A stretch of DNA of 64,000 nucleotides from Anaerolineales bacterium. Its GTDB lineage: Bacteria; Chloroflexota; Anaerolineae; Anaerolineales; DRMV01. Both the position numbers and the translations under genes were made by a program. Below the pieces are notes generated by a model. The model did no database searches. It was not told where the DNA came from and saw only the letters and a list, made by a program, of their open reading frames with translations. This document shows positions 7,845 to 64,000 of the stretch, piece after piece (the first letter of the stretch is position 1; each line of letters begins with the position of its first letter). Location of the stretch: assembly GCA_026996855.1 (NCBI GenBank), contig JALWJZ010000069.1, positions 31,628-95,627 on the forward strand. The letters run 5' to 3'.

Positions 7845-8702
7845 ATGAGTCAGCCTTTTCGCATCGGCACCGTGGGTACACCCCGCTCCACGCCCAAGCG
7901 CCCCGGCGGCACCGTGGGCGGCATTCGGCGCCTGGCCGAACTGGGACTGGACGCCCTGGAACTGGGCTGGGTACGCTCCGTACGGGTGAGTGAGAAAACC
8001 TGCAAGGCCATTCGCGACACCGCGCAACAGCACAACGTGGTCCTGAGCGTGCACGCGCCCTACTACATCAACCTGAACGCCAGCGACGAGGAATGGCCCA
8101 AATCCAAAAAGCGGCTGCTGGACGCGGCCTATTACGGCGCGCTGGCCGGGGCCACGGATATCGTGTTCCATCCCGGCTCCTACTTCGGGGCCGCGCCCAA
8201 AGAGGTCATGCCCCGGGTGCTGCGCCGACTGGAAGAAGTCATCCAGGAACTGGAGGCCAAAGGGGTAAAGGTGCGCCTGCGGCCGGAAACCATGGGCAAG
8301 CCGGCCATGCTGGGCTCCCTGGAAGACGTGCTGGAAATGAGCAAGGCCTTTCCCGGATGGGTGGAGCCCTGCCTGGACTTCGCCCACCTGCACGCCCGGG
8401 CCGGGGACGGTTCCATGAACACCTACGACGAATGGGCCCGGGTGCTGGAAGCCTACGGCAAGGCCCTGGGCGACGACGCGCTGAAGCGGCTGCACATCCA
8501 CCTTTCGGGCATCGATTACGGCCCCAAAGGGGAAAAAGAGCACCTGGTCTTCGCCGAGGCCGACCTGGACCTGGACGCCATCCTGCGGGTCCTGCGGGAT
8601 TTCGGCGCGGCCGGGCGCATCCTGGTGGAAAGCCCCATCCTGGAAGACGACGCCCTTTACCTGAAGGAGCGGTGGCAGGCGATACAAGAGGAAAATGGCT
8701 AA
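7845..8702 (+). CDS. endonuclease IV-like TIM-barrel protein (xylose-isomerase-like fold)
   Basis: SVHAPYYINLNAS...DIVFHPGSY...RLRPETMGK...CLDFAHLHA...HIHLSGIDYG resembles the metal-ligand pattern of the Nfo/AP endonuclease 2 family. ATG at 7845 follows GAGGAG. Confidence 0.6.
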   Translation: MSQPFRIGTVGTPRSTPKRPGGTVGGIRRLAELGLDALELGWVRSVRVSEKTCKAIRDTAQQHNVVLSVHAPYYINLNASDEEWPKSKKRLLDAAYYGALAGATDIVFHPGSYFGAAPKEVMPRVLRRLEEVIQELEAKGVKVRLRPETMGKPAMLGSLEDVLEMSKAFPGWVEPCLDFAHLHARAGDGSMNTYDEWARVLEAYGKALGDDALKRLHIHLSGIDYGPKGEKEHLVFAEADLDLDAILRVLRDFGAAGRILVESPILEDDALYLKERWQAIQEENG

Positions 8703-8714
8703 ATTGGAGGACCC

Positions 8715-9108
8715 ATGAAGCGCTGGCGCGATTGGTGGAAGCAAGCCCTGGCGGATGCGGAACATGCCCGCTATGCTTTAAAAGCCGGCCATTACGAATG
8801 GGCATGCTTTGCCGCCCAACAAGCGGCGGAAAAAGCGCTGAAAGCGTGCCTGAACCGCTTGGGAAAGGCCGCTTACGGGCATGTCCTGCTTCGTTTGTTA
8901 CAAGGCATACGAGAAAGCGGCATTGAAGTGCCTGCTGACTTAGAAGATGCCGCAAAAATCCTGGACAAATTCTACATTACCGACCCGCTACCCCAACGGC
9001 CTGGCAGAAGGCGCACCTACGGAATTCTATACCCGGCAGGAGGCAGAGAATGCCATCGGTCTTGCGGAGCAAATCCTACGGTTCTGTGCAAATCACCTGG
9101 ATCGATGA
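8715..9108 (+). pseudogene. HEPN-domain protein interrupted by a 1-nt insertion
   Basis: The N-terminus WWKQALADAEHARYALKAGHYEWACFAAQQAAEKALKA is HEPN-like. At 8973-8997 the read frame gives FYITDPLPQ. Deleting A8979 gives FYIPTRYPNGLAEGAPTEFYTRQEAENAIGLAEQILRFCANHLDR*, with stop at 9106-9108, which is the canonical HEPN C-terminus. Confidence 0.75.
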
Positions 9109-9472
9109 AGAGGCGCTGTGGGATTATCTCCATCGGCTGATGGAACGCTATCGCTCGCGGCCGGAAGTTCGGGCCGTGGTTTTGTTCGGCTCCCTGGTGA
9201 GCGGGGAATTCGCTGTAGGGAGCGACGTCGATTTACTCCTCGTTTTGGACGAAAGTCCGCAACCCTTCCCGGACCGCATTCCCAAATATCTGCCCGAAGA
9301 TGCGCCCATTGACGTCCAGGTGTTTCCCTATACCGTCGAGGAAATTCGCCGAGGACAACCCATGGCTCTGGAAGCCTTGCGCACCGGGAAGGTGCTGTGG
9401 GCCGATACGGACCTCGAGACGCTGCTCAACGCAAAATCCTCCCCGACACCTTCCGAAACGAGGTCACCATGA
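9086..9472 (+). CDS. minimal nucleotidyltransferase (MNT, Pol-beta superfamily), partner of the HEPN gene
   Basis: VVLFGSLVSGEFAVGSDVDLLLVL carries the GS...DxD NTase motif. The start is uncertain (GTG 9086 or ATG 9050). The stop overlaps the era ATG (ATGA at 9469-9472). Confidence 0.75.
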   Translation: MQITWIDEEALWDYLHRLMERYRSRPEVRAVVLFGSLVSGEFAVGSDVDLLLVLDESPQPFPDRIPKYLPEDAPIDVQVFPYTVEEIRRGQPMALEALRTGKVLWADTDLETLLNAKSSPTPSETRSP

Positions 9473-59684: not shown

Positions 59685-59715
59685 AATTAGGCATTTTTCA
59701 TGTGCTGACACATGC

Positions 59716-59789
59716 TCACACAGAGCCACGGGGACACAGAGAATAGGCTGAAGAAGGCTAAAATTTTCTTCGTGTTTGCCTCCGTGAGA
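59716..59789 (+). repeat. CAC/GTG-rich hairpin element, copy 1 (degenerate)
   Basis: Left arm TCACACAGAGCCACGGGGACACAGAGAA (59716-59743), a 22-nt loop, and a shortened right arm TTCTTCGTGTTTGCCTCCGTGAGA (59766-59789). These form two roughly 10-bp helices of 8/10 each. Confidence 0.6.
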
Positions 59790-59979
59790 AAATGCGATGG
59801 CTTTCGCCGTTTTTGAAAAACGCCCGGGCCAAAATCGTGAAAAATGTATGAAACTCCGGCGCGACCATAACGGAAATCAAAACCCTATGTTATACTGATA
59901 ATTGTATTCCAGTCTTCCAACAACATTCGAACGGTCATGCGGGGAAATCGTGTCTTCTCTTTTGGAAGGAGGCACCCCT

Positions 59980-61551
59980 ATGACGGATTCCCTCACCATC
60001 CACATCCGCACCCGCACGCCCCTGTGGACCGGGGGCATCGACGGCACCATGGACCGCATCCACGAAACGGGGCTCATCGGCTCCCTGCGCTGGTGGTACG
60101 AGGCCATCGTGCGGGGGCTGGGGGGATACGCGTGTGACCCGACGGGACATGAGTACGAATTTACGGGCGAACGCCTGCGTCGCTATGAGCGTGCCCGGCA
60201 GCAAGGCAAAGACTGGTGGGAAGCCCTGGATGAAGCCGGCATTTGCGACGCGTGCAAGGTGTTCGGGACTACGGGCTGGCGGAGAAGGTTTCGGCTGGAA
60301 GCACGTCCCCTTGAAGGCGAATTTGACATTACCGAAGGCATGTTCCTCAGCGGGCGAGTGCATCCCGACAGAAGAAATCCTTACCGGACCGGTGGGTGGC
60401 TTTTGCGCGGCGGCTATCATGGCGAGTTGGAATTGAAGTTCATTGGCGACAAAGAGGTGCTGTGGTGTGAAATTTTGCCTGTCTTGCTTTTTATGGAGAA
60501 ATGGGGCGCCCTGGGCGCGAAGACTTCGTTGGGGTATGGCGTGTTTCAAATTCTTTCCATCAATGGACACCGCAAGGAAGCAGGCCAGTGTTGGCGGGAA
60601 TTTTTGAGGGAGAGCAGGGACATTGCCCCTCTTAACCTTCAGCAATGCTCAAGCTGGGTAGGTCAATGGTGGTGGAGAGGGGGATCATCAAACGGCAACC
60701 AATATCAAGGTATATTGCCTGCACTTACCAATATGTTCTTCGCTAAAGTACGGTTTTCTCCAGATGCGTCATCGGCTTCGGGGGAATGGTGGGAACAATT
60801 GTCAGAGGTGCGGTGGCTCAGTCAAGGCCAAATTCCTGAACAAGAAGCAACGTGGACAGGCGATCCTCAACGGCAACCCCCTGGCCCCTATGGAATTTCC
60901 AATCCTTTGCCCCTCTCCCGGCTTCAGTACTGGGTGGAGTGTCATAAGATGTTTCCAATCGCACCAATCCTACGTTCGCGTTTACGTTACGGCTATAGAT
61001 TTCCCAACGTCCAGGAGTTTCACTCCATATGCAATGGTGGTGGCGAAAGTGATTGGTGTAGGTTTGTGTTTGGGACAGTGCAGGGTAAAAGCCCCGTGTG
61101 TGGTTATTGCGGTACTCCGGTGCGACCGGATAGAGAAGACCAAAATCGCTGGTGGTGCAAGACTGGAAGGGTCTCACTGGATAACCCGGAAGTTGTTCAC
61201 GATGCAAAACGCATCCAAAGTAAAATTCGCATTTCGTGGGCATACTACATAAATGAGCAAGAGAGGGAAATACGCCTTTGGGGATGGCTCCCGGAAGATC
61301 AACGGGATCAACACAGCCAACAGCGTGCCTCACTCCTGCGGAAGTTGCGAAGTGTTCTGGGTGTCAATCGTTCCAACGCACGCCAATGGCATTCGGCCCA
61401 AAACGGCGCGCTGTGGTCGGCCCTCAATCTGATGCCAGCGCAAGTGTGCTGGTTTGAGCGAGGCGATAACGATAGAGAATCTTACCTGAAAGCCCTCTTG
61501 GAGGATTGCGGACAAACTTCACACGGAGACACGGGGAACACAGAGAAATAA
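59980..61551 (+). CDS. cmr1: type III CRISPR-associated RAMP protein, Cmr1-like (two RAMP-like halves)
   Basis: TPLWTGGIDG...IHETGLIGSLRWWYEAIVRGLGG, ICDACKVFGTTGWRRRF and a G-rich loop WGALGAKTSLGYGVF. The second half has CRFVFGT and SKIRISWAY. ATG 59980 follows GGAAGGAGG. The subfamily assignment is from memory only. Confidence 0.65.
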   Translation: MTDSLTIHIRTRTPLWTGGIDGTMDRIHETGLIGSLRWWYEAIVRGLGGYACDPTGHEYEFTGERLRRYERARQQGKDWWEALDEAGICDACKVFGTTGWRRRFRLEARPLEGEFDITEGMFLSGRVHPDRRNPYRTGGWLLRGGYHGELELKFIGDKEVLWCEILPVLLFMEKWGALGAKTSLGYGVFQILSINGHRKEAGQCWREFLRESRDIAPLNLQQCSSWVGQWWWRGGSSNGNQYQGILPALTNMFFAKVRFSPDASSASGEWWEQLSEVRWLSQGQIPEQEATWTGDPQRQPPGPYGISNPLPLSRLQYWVECHKMFPIAPILRSRLRYGYRFPNVQEFHSICNGGGESDWCRFVFGTVQGKSPVCGYCGTPVRPDREDQNRWWCKTGRVSLDNPEVVHDAKRIQSKIRISWAYYINEQEREIRLWGWLPEDQRDQHSQQRASLLRKLRSVLGVNRSNARQWHSAQNGALWSALNLMPAQVCWFERGDNDRESYLKALLEDCGQTSHGDTGNTEK

Positions 61552-61587
61552 TAGAAACTTCTCTGTGCTCTCTGTGGCTCTGTGTGA
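61519..61587 (+). repeat. CAC/GTG-rich hairpin element, copy 2
   Basis: TCACACGGAGACACGGGGAACACAGAGAA (61519-61547), an 11-nt loop, then TTCTCTGTGCTCTCTGTGGCTCTGTGTGA (61559-61587). Over 29 positions there are 24 Watson-Crick pairs, 3 G:U pairs (valid only as plus-strand RNA) and 2 mismatches. The cmr1-like stop TAA (61549-61551) lies in the loop. Confidence 0.85.
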
Positions 61588-61604
61588 GTTCTGTGGAAAA
61601 GGCG

Positions 61605-62066
61605 ATGAACGAGCAAGACCTGCACCGGCTTGTTGAACACCTGCAACAAACCCTGGGCGAGCGCCTGGAAGCGGTGGTGCTCTTCGGCTCCCGGGCCCGG
61701 GGCGAGGCCCGGCCCGAAAGCGATTGGGACCTGCTCGTCGTGGTCCAGGGCCTGCCCCGAAGCCCGCTGAAGCGATGGCAATGGTTTCTTGAGCAAGCCG
61801 GCCGTCCTGAGCCGGGCGTGGATGTCTTGCTCAAAACCCCCGAAGAATGGTACACGCATCTTTCCTCCCTTACGCTGGACGTGGCGCTGGATGGGCAGAT
61901 TCTCTACGATGCCCATGGCCGTATGAGCCGCTTCCTGGAACGGGTGCGGCAAAGCCTTCAAAAGGCAGGCCTGCGCCGGGAATTCCGCCGGGGGCACTAT
62001 CTCTGGAGATCGTCTTCCCACGAGAAGCCGTGGTACGAACGTCTTCGGGAGGCCCTTGCCCTATGA
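61605..62066 (+). CDS. minimal nucleotidyltransferase (MNT)
   Basis: VVLFGSRARGEARPESDWDLLVVV carries the GS...DxD motif. ATGA overlap with the HEPN gene. Confidence 0.8.
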   Translation: MNEQDLHRLVEHLQQTLGERLEAVVLFGSRARGEARPESDWDLLVVVQGLPRSPLKRWQWFLEQAGRPEPGVDVLLKTPEEWYTHLSSLTLDVALDGQILYDAHGRMSRFLERVRQSLQKAGLRREFRRGHYLWRSSSHEKPWYERLREALAL

Positions 62067-62503
62067 GTTCGCCCGTCACATACAGGTTTCGCCTGGCCCG
62101 GGGGTTCCTGCAAGAGGCCGAACAGGACGCTTCCCTTGGCCGCTGGCGAGCGTGCGTCGCCCACGCGCAACTGGCCGTGGAAAATGCACTGAAGGCCGTC
62201 ATCGCCTTGTTTGCTCCTGTGCCACGAACCCACGCCCCCACAGATGTTCTGCGCATGATGCTGGAAGAGGGCGACATTCCCCAGACCATGCGGACTGATG
62301 TTCAGGAATTGGTGGACATCGTGCAAGGCTTGGATTTGGCCACTATCCACATCCAGACCGACTACGGCGACGAAACCCACGGCTTGACGCCCTGGGAACT
62401 CTTCTCCGAAGAAGACGCCCGCGAAGCCCTGGCCATCGCCCGGCGGGTGGTGGCGAAGGCCGCGAGGCTGACTCAAGAACAAGGAGGCGCCGATGAAGCG
62501 TGA
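62063..62503 (+). CDS. HEPN-domain protein
   Basis: FRLARGFLQEAEQDASLGRWRACVAHAQLAVENALKAVIALF is a HEPN helix pair like the 8715 gene. It is partnered with the MNT. Its last 11 nt overlap the start of the cmr6-like gene. Confidence 0.75.
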   Translation: MSSPVTYRFRLARGFLQEAEQDASLGRWRACVAHAQLAVENALKAVIALFAPVPRTHAPTDVLRMMLEEGDIPQTMRTDVQELVDIVQGLDLATIHIQTDYGDETHGLTPWELFSEEDAREALAIARRVVAKAARLTQEQGGADEA

Positions 62504-63680
62504 ATTTTGGGCAGAGTTTGATTTGTACAATGAGCCTCAGAAACGTAATCTCATCCATTACTTTGTTGGAAAATCTCAGCGTAACGGAGAGCCACCGCAG
62601 CCACCTGAGCGACAAAATGGTCAGTTATCATGGGAATTGTTAGAAAACCAGGCCGTCCGACAACATATGTTGGCCCAACTTTTGGCTTCCGAAGAGAAAT
62701 GCGCCAAGACCAAATGCAAAGATTACGCCAAGGGCAAAAACGGCCTGCAATGGTGGTATTATGCTGGGAATCTTGCGGATCCACAAGGTGAATTTCAGAA
62801 CTTTCTGCGAAACCGCGTAAGGTGGATGGCGTCTGTCCTTGGTCTTGTCTATCAGCAAACTATAGTAGTCCCCGCCCTCCCCGACCTCTCCCGCTTCCCG
62901 CCCGGCACCTGGGCCGTTCAGGTCACTTTCACCCTGCGCAAGCCCTACATCAGCAAGGACGATGTGGACTTCTACATCCTGGACAACCCTGTCAAGAAGG
63001 AATGGGTCTTCAAGGTGCCCTACGTGGCCCCCAGCCAGTGGAAGGGCGCGCTGCGGGCGGCCATGGTGCGGGAACTGGTCATGGCTTTTGGGGAAGGTGA
63101 AATAAACGAAGACGAGTTTGTCGAAAAGCGACTTCAAATGTATCGCCTTTTCGGCAATGAAAAGGATGGCACGGCTGAGTTTCTCAACCGTACCCTGGCA
63201 CGGTTCCGCGTAGGCCCACCGCCCCAAGAAAATGGTAAGGAAGCAACAAGACAATGGCGAGAACGGCTGGAACGGGAAACGAAAGTTGTTGCTGAGGAAT
63301 TTGAAAGCGCGTTGCGTGAGAATGGGTATCGCGTTGGGGATATTGAGAGTTTCCAGGGCCGCCTCCACTTCTACCCCACCTTCTTCGACCGCATCGGCCA
63401 GGAGATCATCAACCCCCACGACCGGAAGAAGGGCGCGGGGAAGCACCCCATTTACTTTGAGTGTGTGCCCCCGGAGACCAGCGGTATTTTCACCCTGCTC
63501 TATGTCCCCATCGGCGGTGGCCCAAAGGACGAGACAACCTGCAAAGCCGATCTGGAAGCAGTGGTACAAGGCATCCGCGCCATGCTCACCACATACGGCT
63601 TCGGCGCCAAGACCAGCAGCGGGTATGGTGTGGCGAAAATTGAAAATTTTCACACGGAGGCACAGAGAACACAGGGATAA
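62493..63680 (+). CDS. cmr6: type III CRISPR-associated RAMP (Cas7-fold) protein, Cmr6-like
   Basis: ILDNPVKKEWVFKVPYVAPSQWKGALRAA, MYRLFGNE, GRLHFYPTFFD...IINPH and a C-terminal G-rich loop YGFGAKTSSGYGVAKI. ATG follows AAGGAGG. The first roughly 110 aa are A/T-richer and were not recognised. Confidence 0.65.
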   Translation: MKREFWAEFDLYNEPQKRNLIHYFVGKSQRNGEPPQPPERQNGQLSWELLENQAVRQHMLAQLLASEEKCAKTKCKDYAKGKNGLQWWYYAGNLADPQGEFQNFLRNRVRWMASVLGLVYQQTIVVPALPDLSRFPPGTWAVQVTFTLRKPYISKDDVDFYILDNPVKKEWVFKVPYVAPSQWKGALRAAMVRELVMAFGEGEINEDEFVEKRLQMYRLFGNEKDGTAEFLNRTLARFRVGPPPQENGKEATRQWRERLERETKVVAEEFESALRENGYRVGDIESFQGRLHFYPTFFDRIGQEIINPHDRKKGAGKHPIYFECVPPETSGIFTLLYVPIGGGPKDETTCKADLEAVVQGIRAMLTTYGFGAKTSSGYGVAKIENFHTEAQRTQG

Positions 63681-63712
63681 AAATCCTCCGTGTCCTCTGT
63701 GCCTCTGTGTGA
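63650..63712 (+). repeat. CAC/GTG-rich hairpin element, copy 3
   Basis: TCACACGGAGGCACAGAGAACACAGGGAT (63650-63678), loop AAAA, then ATCCTCCGTGTCCTCTGTGCCTCTGTGTGA (63683-63712). The outer 23 positions give 21 WC, 1 G:U and 1 mismatch. The stem is extended by AUUUU/AAAAU. The cmr6-like stop TAA (63678-63680) sits at the apex. Confidence 0.85.
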
Positions 63713-63734
63713 AAATCCCTTGGAGACATAGGTT

Positions 63735-64000
63735 ATGCACGAGAATCAAATTGGCACAATCATTGTGCAAACGGCTATAGAACTGCACAAAGACCTTGGG
63801 CCAGGACTGTTAGAGAGCGTGTATGAAGTGCTGCTGGCCCATCGTCTGCGGCAGAAAGGCCTACGGGTGGAACGCCAGGTTCCAATAGCCATTGAAGTCG
63901 ATGGCTACCGGTTTGAAGAAGCCTTTCGCGCGGACCTGATTGTGGAAGGCAAGGTGATCGTGGAGTTGAAGTCTGTCGAGCAAGTGCACCCCGCGCACAA
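63735..64000 (+). CDS. GxxExxY protein (PD-(D/E)XK-like small protein), truncated by the window end
   Basis: MHENQIGTIIVQTAIELHKDLGPGLLESVYEVLLAHRLRQKGLRVERQVPIAIEVDGYRFEEAFRADLIVEGKVIVELKSVEQ contains the eponymous G..E..Y and a D...ELK motif. Not in the ORF track because no stop falls within the window. Confidence 0.8.
   Translation, partial: MHENQIGTIIVQTAIELHKDLGPGLLESVYEVLLAHRLRQKGLRVERQVPIAIEVDGYRFEEAFRADLIVEGKVIVELKSVEQVHPAH

Follow-up and report, generated by a model that had tools for sequence, protein, structure and literature searches.

The 3' end of a 64,000-nucleotide stretch of Anaerolineales DNA (contig JALWJZ010000069.1, positions 31,628 to 95,627; hereafter the window) carries five plus-strand genes between positions 59980 and 64000, as read from the list of open reading frames (ORFs) and the sequence itself. 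Two of them encode the RAMP proteins Cmr1 and Cmr6 of a CRISPR effector operon, and between these lie two small genes coding for a minimal nucleotidyltransferase (MNT) and a HEPN protein. This embedded cassette of MNT and non-canonical HEPN is real, recurrent and CRISPR-linked, while the reading of the locus as a Cas10-poor RAMP system, put forward in a first-pass annotation, is wrong.

Genes and hairpins of the locus

The first gene, cmr1 (59980-61551), starts with an ATG located 8 nt 3' of GGAAGGAGG and codes for a 523-aa Cas7-group RAMP matched by the Pfam RAMPs family (2.4e-23), the PADLOC Cmr1 model (1e-24) and TIGR01894 (3.9e-13; 49.9 bits for a cut-off of 28.65). Over ~500 aa the product is 52-62% identical to Cmr1 of the subtype III-C loci L011, L065, L022 and L006, the values being 59-62% for L011, from a Bacteroidetes metagenome-assembled genome (MAG), and L065, an unassigned metagenome contig. 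The MNT gene (61605-62066), whose 153-aa product has the Pol-beta fold, comes next, followed by the gene of the 146-aa, HEPN-T-class HEPN protein (62063-62503) and by cmr6 (62493-63680), encoding a second Cas7-group RAMP of 395 aa. Cmr6 was recognised by the PADLOC models PDLC00988 (Cmr6, 8e-85) and PDLC01535 (III-B/III-C, 3.4e-72), its match to TIGR01898 (1.2e-7) remaining under that model's cut-off. The fifth gene (63735-64000), cut by the window end, fills the slot between cmr6 and cas10c and codes for a GxxExxY-type PD-(D/E)XK protein (PDDEXK_3, 3.6e-25) with the motif G-L-L-E-S-V-Y.

All five genes had been listed in the first-pass annotation and were recovered at these coordinates, and the PADLOC and TIGR01894 profile searches bear out its naming of the two RAMPs, which are genuine Cmr1 and Cmr6 homologues. 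It was also right about the two gene overlaps, ATGA (62063-62066) joining MNT to HEPN and 11 nt (62493-62503) joining HEPN to cmr6, which couple the translation of these three genes. L002, L098 and L106 have overlaps of the same 4 and 11 nt, and in the type I-D loci L100-L103 the same 11-nt overlap is formed with a downstream ORF. A 2.4-kb contig of another metagenome sample (L001, ERZ23491300), 99.8% identical to window positions 60883-63306, carries cmr1-MNT-HEPN-cmr6 as well, meaning that the same strain and arrangement were sampled independently.

The locus neighbours mraZ, with a DUF309 gene between them. Compared with a GC content of 0.62-0.73 in the dcw region, the values drop to 0.50-0.55 around 60400-61450 and to 0.46 within 62500-62800. 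The 64-kb window was negative for CRISPR arrays and for homologues of the III-C cas10c, cmr4, cmr5 and cmr3 reference proteins; cas6 was not screened for. CARF or SAVED domains were matched neither in the cmr1, MNT, HEPN and cmr6 proteins (Pfam, NCBIfam and PADLOC) nor in the truncated GxxExxY gene (Pfam or PADLOC).

A palindromic hairpin motif, confined to this locus within the 64 kb, is found at several gene borders. One copy separates cmr1 from MNT (61512-61594; RNA fold of -44.8 kcal/mol, z -8.3) and another follows cmr6 (63646-63716; -48.8 kcal/mol, z -10.7). In both cases the stop codon of the preceding gene stands in the loop, and the last ~10 codons of cmr1 and of cmr6 come from the 5' arm of the hairpin. 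A degenerate copy upstream of cmr1 (59715-59790) aligns with the others and folds weakly (-26.5 kcal/mol, z -2.0). Among related loci, the same hairpin occupies the cmr1-MNT border of L026 (~9000-9070), and a homologous one follows cmr6 in L083 (353-415) and L098 (11651-11713); further copies are present in L083 (818-881) and L051 (~8010-8060), and none in the sibling locus L036. The conserved element of ~65-70 nt marks cassette borders after cmr1, after cmr6 and on both sides of GxxExxY. Intrinsic terminators were ruled out, as no T-tract follows the hairpins and a terminator scan stayed at chance level, and so were known RNAs, because no Rfam family was matched at threshold, the only matches being sub-threshold and miRNA-like. 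Conceivable roles of the hairpins are those of a mobile element, of a site of recombination or of a signal for RNA processing.

Genes of the GxxExxY type (PDDEXK_3) recur in or beside III-C loci, namely in L083 (434-850), L051 (7645-8028), L085 (1196-1606) and the window (63735-64000). The part seen in the window is 84% identical at the nucleotide level to L083 353-702, the full L083 gene coding for 138 aa. That gene is bracketed by two hairpin copies, which suggests a small mobile unit.

Subtype III-C and the position of cas10

Scans with Cmr6 retrieved 34 genomic and 62 metagenomic loci, from which a non-redundant set of 84, ascertained through Cmr6, was annotated using reference proteins validated on L002. 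The order cmr1-cmr6-cas10-cmr4-cmr5-cmr3, canonical for subtype III-C, recurs across the whole of this set and is uninterrupted in many of its members. The closest full locus, L002 from an Ardenticatena sp. MAG, has a Cmr6 that is 70% identical to that of the window and reads cmr1-MNT-HEPN-cmr6-AbiEii-like nucleotidyltransferase (NTase)-Cas10c-Cmr4-Cmr5-Cmr3, its Cas10c matching the PADLOC CAS-III-C large-subunit model at 1e-168. A full or continuing III-C order was seen in L002, L004, L026 and L083. The latter is the closest relative for the last 630 bases of the window (63367-64000; 94.8% and 84% nucleotide identity) and continues as cmr6-hairpin-GxxExxY-hairpin-cas10c, with a Cas10c N-terminus (...AAWLHDVGK) in which the HD motif is intact. 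Relatives thus have cas10c ~0.3-0.7 kb past the position of the window end. From this comparison, the region is predicted to be the 5' half of a subtype III-C effector operon, the remainder of which would lie beyond 64000. The lack of cas10 in the window would be an edge artefact, because the relatives carry cas10c-cmr4-cmr5-cmr3 downstream, in L083 with cas10c after GxxExxY and a hairpin.

The remark in the first-pass annotation that no cas10 was in view is therefore literally true, but only because the window stops short of the site that cas10c occupies in relatives. Its yardstick, the III-B gene order with cas10 following cmr1, was the wrong comparison; the visible part, cmr1 to cmr6, fits the III-C order. 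The accompanying speculation of a Cas10-poor or rearranged RAMP complex, taken to the form in which MNT-HEPN would replace Cas10, is highly improbable. It draws only on the absence of cas10 within the window and could be revived solely if the source contig went on without any cas10, whereas the standard III-C order of the relatives, with canonical cas10c-cmr4-cmr5-cmr3 downstream and, in L083, a cas10c ~0.7 kb beyond the window-end position, contradicts a Cas10-less system. In L008 and L018 no cas10c was found in the 7-10 kb fetched 3' of cmr6, where other defence genes are present, but the gene could be farther away, L037 having its cas10c 7.7 kb downstream of cmr6.

Subtype III-C systems have been described as devoid of cyclase sites and of known effectors, with about half of them keeping the HD motif (PMC11229360). 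In agreement with this and with PMC12669027, the GGD[DE] motif is present in none of the 32 full-length Cas10c proteins of the relatives. With a cyclase-dead Cas10, III-C complexes are unable to signal by cyclic oligoadenylate (cOA). The HD dipeptide is kept in 19 proteins and reads HN or HM in 12; it is intact in 10 loci without a module and nine with one, and changed to HN/HM in four without and eight with, numbers that are small and include some truncated loci. Arrays accompany only a few relatives (L053/L054, L070 and L080), and most III-C loci are known to be without them (PMC12669027).

The MNT-HEPN pair

The gene directly 5' of cmr6 was readable in 78 of the 84 loci and the gene 3' of it in 57. 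Upstream, the ~250-aa partner of an ABC ATPase was found in 36 loci, cmr1 with no insert in 27, HEPN in nine, MNT alone in four and other genes in two. The downstream neighbour was cas10c in 35 loci, an AbiEii-type NTase in eight, MNT in four (with HEPN too in L021 and L032), GxxExxY in one and other genes, including restriction-modification genes, in nine. As the genes on both sides of cmr6 vary, the operon is seen to have two slots that take co-oriented cassettes. About two thirds of the 78 loci have such an insert between cmr1 and cmr6, with HEPN or MNT standing directly upstream of cmr6 in 13 of them, next to the 36 with the ATPase pair and the two with other genes. The pair occupies the cmr1-cmr6 slot in Chloroflexota, Thermodesulfobacteriota, Bacteroidota and WOR-3, its carriers including Ardenticatena, Thermoflexus, Thermodesulfatator, a Saprospiraceae MAG and WOR-3.

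Homologues of the HEPN protein numbered 163 at E<=1e-5, and the contexts of nine on long contigs (47-91% identity) were looked up. Three (P0003, P0079 and P0036) reside in III-C operons, either in the slot that precedes cmr6 (after cmr1) or in the one that follows it (before cas10), and another three (P0031, P0078 and P0055) within or at the end of type I-D or I-D-like operons. P0076 is located at the head of a III-B operon in which a Card1 effector is also present, and P0117 at the head of an unclassified RAMP cluster of Methanothrix. CRISPR effector gene clusters hence hold, within them or at their end, eight of the nine sampled homologues, and MNT is immediately upstream of HEPN in all nine. 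The remaining one, P0100, lies away from cas genes in Methylomirabilis, where two tandem MNT-HEPN pairs stand among sugar/KDO genes, a tandem duplication of the kind typical of toxin-antitoxin pairs. The family is small. Its members number 675 at E<=1e-3, and a collection of 1.84 billion clusters yielded only 289 representatives at E<=1e-10, a figure that shrinks to 48 at E<=1e-30. No match to the HEPN clade was obtained in the phage, viral and plasmid collections searched, and an origin from such elements was rejected on this ground. MNT-HEPN is best read as belonging to a small and distinct HEPN-T/MNT clade specialised for class 1 CRISPR effector operons. The idea of the first-pass annotation that the pair is more than an accidental bystander gains from its presence in the same slot in at least four phyla and from the sampled CRISPR contexts.

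The pair is patchily distributed on the Cmr6 tree, and sister loci differ in slot content. While the window MNT and HEPN are ~70% identical to those of L008/L065, the Cmr6 proteins of these loci are only ~45% identical to that of the window; conversely L002, so close in Cmr6, has a Cmr1 with only 34% identity. The patchy tree and mosaic identities rule out monophyly, or vertical co-inheritance, of MNT-HEPN with Cmr6, and the pair appears from these comparisons to be an optional, mobile two-gene cassette. Exchange has also affected its neighbour. The sibling L098/L099 shares the dcw-DUF309 synteny and is 94.7% identical up to 60147 and 87.5% from 61642, L098 ending soon after cmr6, but the cmr1 body in between (60148-61641) is non-homologous to L098 (8540-9579), whose Cmr1 has 394 aa and overlaps MNT. 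A swap of the cmr1 body within the operon explains the low-GC stretch. The A/T-richer stretches to which the first-pass annotation had drawn attention are real, the segment 60148-61641 being the swapped gene body.

In the sibling L036 (93-97% nucleotide identity) cmr1 is directly followed by cmr6. All that is kept of the pair is a stretch of ~40-70 nt from the 3' end of HEPN, in which AAGGAGG and the ATG of cmr6 are preserved; the pair was therefore deleted in that lineage. In several independent contexts the HEPN 3' end likewise holds the start signals of the next cas gene, both the ribosome-binding site (RBS) and the start codon. MNT has been kept and HEPN lost or broken in four loci: the loss is clean in L007 and L051, residues ~34-113 are missing in L038, and a C-terminal remnant is left in L050. 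No HEPN without MNT was encountered among the III-C loci or the sampled contexts.

The commonest occupant of the cmr1-cmr6 slot is of another kind, an ABC ATPase of ~440 aa (AAA_21/AAA_15, AriA/AbiL/OLD-like) followed by the ~250-aa partner (L009, L010, L017, L029, L030, L035, L053 and ~30 more loci). The partner matched no Pfam or PADLOC family and begins with a Toprim-like ...EG.TE motif; the two may form an undescribed III-C accessory pair. The slots around cmr6 also house large inserts of defence genes (L008 3620-12829; L018 10618-12639; L028 6395-9894, upstream of cmr6; L037 2906-10599), among them a type IIG restriction-modification/methyltransferase, a SIR2/pAgo-associated-like protein and an HKD+Snf2 helicase (C3a139).

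The only Pfam match of the HEPN protein above cut-off is PF05168 (8.9e-16). Its AF2 model has a pLDDT of 92, and the best Foldseek matches were TT1696 (1UFB), AF0298 (2HSB), sacsin HEPN and 1WOL (TM 0.64-0.79), with TM values of 0.33-0.46 to HepT toxins. When aligned with TT1696 and TM0613 (1O3U), the window segment H-I-Q-T-D-Y-G-D-E falls on Y-I-P-T-R-Y-P-D-A, which puts D100 at the position of the catalytic Arg. D100-Y-G-D-E104 is present in 117 of 120 homologues, and the His after the motif is not conserved. In the model, D-Y-G-D-E is found at the end of helix 3, the same location where Rx4-6H is placed in PMC3710099. Invariant positions are R8, R27, W28, T56, H57, Y101, G102, D103, E104, P110 and W111. 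The conserved [RK]-T56-H57 has its T56-H57 in the helix 2-3 insert, where AF0298-type proteins have their "alternative His". By the criteria of PMC3710099, the HEPN protein has neither Rx4-6H nor the AF0298-type alternative, that is, a basic residue in the motif combined with an upstream His, although the upstream T-H is conserved. It is thus predicted to be of the HEPN-T fold class but devoid of a recognised catalytic motif; it may have RNase activity by way of other conserved basic residues (R27, R29, H57 and H96). The clade defines a HEPN variant in which an invariant acidic motif takes the place of the RNase site, and the portrayal of the HEPN in the first-pass annotation as a classic RNase effector is not supported.

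Single-polypeptide MNT-HEPN fusions of ~290-310 aa belong to the same family (P0122, P0123, P0143, P0155, P0213, P0223 and P0261). More distant members have S/T-Y-G-D instead of D-Y-G-D-E, from which Y-G-D would be the conserved core of a wider HEPN-T subgroup without the catalytic Arg. The window contains a second HEPN/MNT pair, of classical type, at 8715-9472 beside era, in reversed order (HEPN 8715-9140, MNT 9050-9472). Its HEPN reads LDKFYITDPLPQRP where relatives have YIPTRYPD and may thus be frameshifted.

The MNT protein is matched by the Pfam families NTP_transf_2 (1.6e-8) and Polbeta (1.9e-8) and by PADLOC PDC-S09 (3.9e-14), and its alignment shows an intact catalytic GS...DWD motif. 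Among solved structures HalB is closest to it (1.9e-6 over residues 20-114, a range extending past the NTase core into the helical part), the match to the MntA structure (1.1e-3) covering the core only. It scored 29.9 bits with the HalB family model (cut-off 190) and 40.2 bits with the MntA model NF047752 (cut-off 60), and is outside both families by these NCBIfam cut-offs.

Candidate roles and comparison with known systems

The best explanation for the observed gene identities, operon coupling, subtype, distribution, mobility, motif loss and MNT-only/HEPN-only asymmetry is that of a III-C operon with MNT-HEPN as a toxin-antitoxin-like guard cassette specialised for cas operons, an explanation that is probable, if by no means secure. 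The MNT, with its catalytic motif intact, would continuously restrain HEPN by nucleotidyl transfer or neutralise it otherwise, the invariant Tyr101 of the D-Y-G-D-E loop being the probable nucleotidyl acceptor. Translational coupling would tie the stoichiometry of the pair to expression of the cas operon. If the operon were shut off, lost or sabotaged, HEPN would be released and growth arrested, either as an abortive-infection back-up or as an addiction stabilising the locus. The existence of MNT-only loci, with no HEPN-only counterpart, suggests a harmful partner held in check by MNT. It is this asymmetry, together with the MntA and HalB precedents, that favours the guard model. MNT-type NTases are constitutive negative regulators of toxic partners in two known cases. 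In type VII toxin-antitoxin systems MntA AMPylates a Tyr in the active-site loop of HepT (according to references cited in PMC12737573); in Hailong, HalA is kept closed by HalB, which starts oligo-dA synthesis from a Tyr (PMC13434031).

Several points weigh against the guard model. The III-C subtype call of the locus rests on relatives, cas10c lying beyond the window, and the context sample is small, with nine look-ups and one counter-example (P0100), next to a III-C set ascertained by Cmr6. The HEPN protein is not of the HepT/DUF86 class, and the Rx4-6H RNase motif is missing from the whole clade, so that a conventional HEPN RNase toxin is not assured. MNT falls short of the MntA cut-off, and the MNT-HEPN fusions fit a two-domain enzyme better than the classical scheme of a labile antitoxin. 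Toxicity of HEPN, its nucleotidylylation, the trigger and the biological pay-off all enter the model as suppositions.

A true ancillary module, functionally or physically coupled to the III-C or another class 1 complex, is a possible but rather unlikely alternative. It might take the form of a two-subunit nucleotidyltransferase or an RNA-binding switch and give the complex the collateral or regulatory output for which Cas10c has no cOA signal, with the ABC-ATPase and ~250-aa pair of the same slot as another module of this kind. Stated in its fullest form, the D-Y-G-D-E HEPN-T/MNT pair would be an unrecognised, cOA-independent and nucleotidyltransferase-controlled effector or regulator plugged into class 1 operons, above all the cyclase-dead III-C and the Cas10d-bearing I-D ones, a proposal that is likewise regarded as tentative and rather improbable. 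The absence of a cyclase and of known effectors in III-C (PMC11229360) is in its favour, and so are the embedding of the pair by start/stop overlaps in effector operons of several CRISPR subtypes and the predominance of CRISPR-linked contexts. The invariant acidic motif standing in for the RNase motif, the MNT-HEPN fusions, the stable retention of MNT alone in L007 and L051, and the AriA/AbiL/OLD-like ATPase pair found in the same slot in nearly half of the 78 loci are also consistent with such coupling. However, the pair is optional, being deleted in the sibling L036 with no insert at all in 27 of the 78 loci, and it occurs away from cas genes (P0100). It also co-occurs with the ATPase pair without exclusion (L021, L032, L035 and L066), has no evident association with a changed HD motif of Cas10c in the small set compared and has no sensor domain, and any contact with the complex would be hypothetical.

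It is doubtful, on the other hand, that MNT-HEPN is an ordinary toxin-antitoxin cassette sitting selfishly at a permissive intergenic site of cas operons, in the manner of many defence-island genes, with no benefit to CRISPR immunity. Patchy presence with frequent gain, loss and swapping, the deletion scar in L036 and the earlier decay of HEPN would all be expected of such a bystander. The palindromic elements at cassette borders, the capacity of both slots to take unrelated genes (restriction-modification, AbiEii NTase, GxxExxY) and the second, classical HEPN/MNT pair elsewhere in the window point in the same direction. The first-pass annotation had taken a standard downstream cas10 set, together with absence of the pair from orthologous loci, as the mark of a selfish insertion; relatives do have that set and many loci, L036 included, are without the pair, but it is conserved in many others. 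Moreover, an opportunistic cassette would be expected in many neighbourhoods, whereas all but one of the sampled homologues, from four CRISPR subtypes and several phyla, are CRISPR-linked, the family is small and distinct, and in several independent contexts the next cas gene has its RBS and start codon inside the HEPN 3' end. The CRISPR-linked contexts and the small size of the family are hard to reconcile with purely opportunistic toxin-antitoxin insertion.

Subtype III-C is described with an inactive cyclase and without known ancillary effectors (PMC11229360). For the function thus missing from its protection of cells, the cmr1-cmr6 inserts, and a clade nearly confined to class 1 operons, provide testable candidates. 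As a true ancillary module, the pair would be the "second arm" that III-C immunity has lacked; alternatively, it would be a protein-based "guardian" toxin-antitoxin of cas operons, analogous to the RNA-based CreTA. No published description of the D-Y-G-D-E clade or of its CRISPR linkage was found in the literature searched. Shah et al. recovered no toxin-antitoxin pairs among type III accessory genes, and list without discussion a three-member "nucleotidyl trans." cluster (C3a174, III-B/C) and a "III-C specific" cluster. General statements on HEPN toxins or toxin-antitoxin genes accompanying immunity loci date from 2012-2013. Judged by that literature, the CRISPR linkage of the pair and the D-Y-G-D-E variant of the HEPN-T/MNT kind are new; the III-C operon itself is ordinary.

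In comparison with III-C systems (MTH326-like), the locus has the Cmr1 and Cmr6 RAMPs in III-C order, relatives whose Cas10c fits the CAS-III-C large-subunit model without GGDD, and neither array nor adaptation genes nearby, as is usual for the subtype (PMC12669027). It differs in that the visible part is interrupted by MNT-HEPN and followed by a GxxExxY gene, in its long cmr1, swapped with respect to the sibling, and in the hairpins overlapping gene ends. With the classical HEPN-T (PF05168)/MNT pairs of thermophiles, represented by TT1696, AF0298 and TM0613, it shares the fold (Foldseek TM 0.66-0.76), the Pfam family, the adjacent MNT with a 4-nt overlap and the occasional MNT-HEPN fusions. 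Unlike in these pairs, the catalytic Arg of RYPD..H is replaced by Asp in the invariant D-Y-G-D-E, no solved member is more than weakly similar in sequence (E >= 1e-3), and the clade is nearly always encoded in CRISPR effector operons.

Type VII HepT-MntA also combines a minimal NTase of intact motif with an adjacent HEPN-fold protein, and the window HEPN has a Tyr in the loop where HepT is AMPylated; the retention of MNT upon loss of HEPN is toxin-antitoxin-like as well. Nevertheless, HepT is of the DUF86 class and has Rx4H, whereas the window protein is of the HEPN-T class and has none, the NTase scores under the MntA cut-off, and gene order and operon context are unlike. As regards Hailong, HalB is the closest solved relative of the window MNT and, by analogy, the latter may be a constitutive negative regulator of a toxic partner; the partner, however, is here a HEPN protein and not the HalA channel, and none of the five genes of the locus codes for a HalA-like membrane protein. 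CreTA/CrePA provides the example of a small toxin-antitoxin-like module inside a cas locus, proposed to cause addiction or abortive infection on CRISPR loss or inhibition (PMC12737573), but CreTA is an RNA pair under Cascade control, while here both partners are proteins and a link to crRNA-guided repression is not visible. Finally, Csm6/Csx1 CARF-HEPN effectors are, like the window HEPN, HEPN-fold proteins encoded with a type III effector module, from which the present protein departs by having no CARF/SAVED sensor, no Rx4-6H and, as Cas10c is cyclase-dead, no cOA to respond to. The pair therefore stands outside type VII HepT-MntA, Hailong and Csm6/Csx1.

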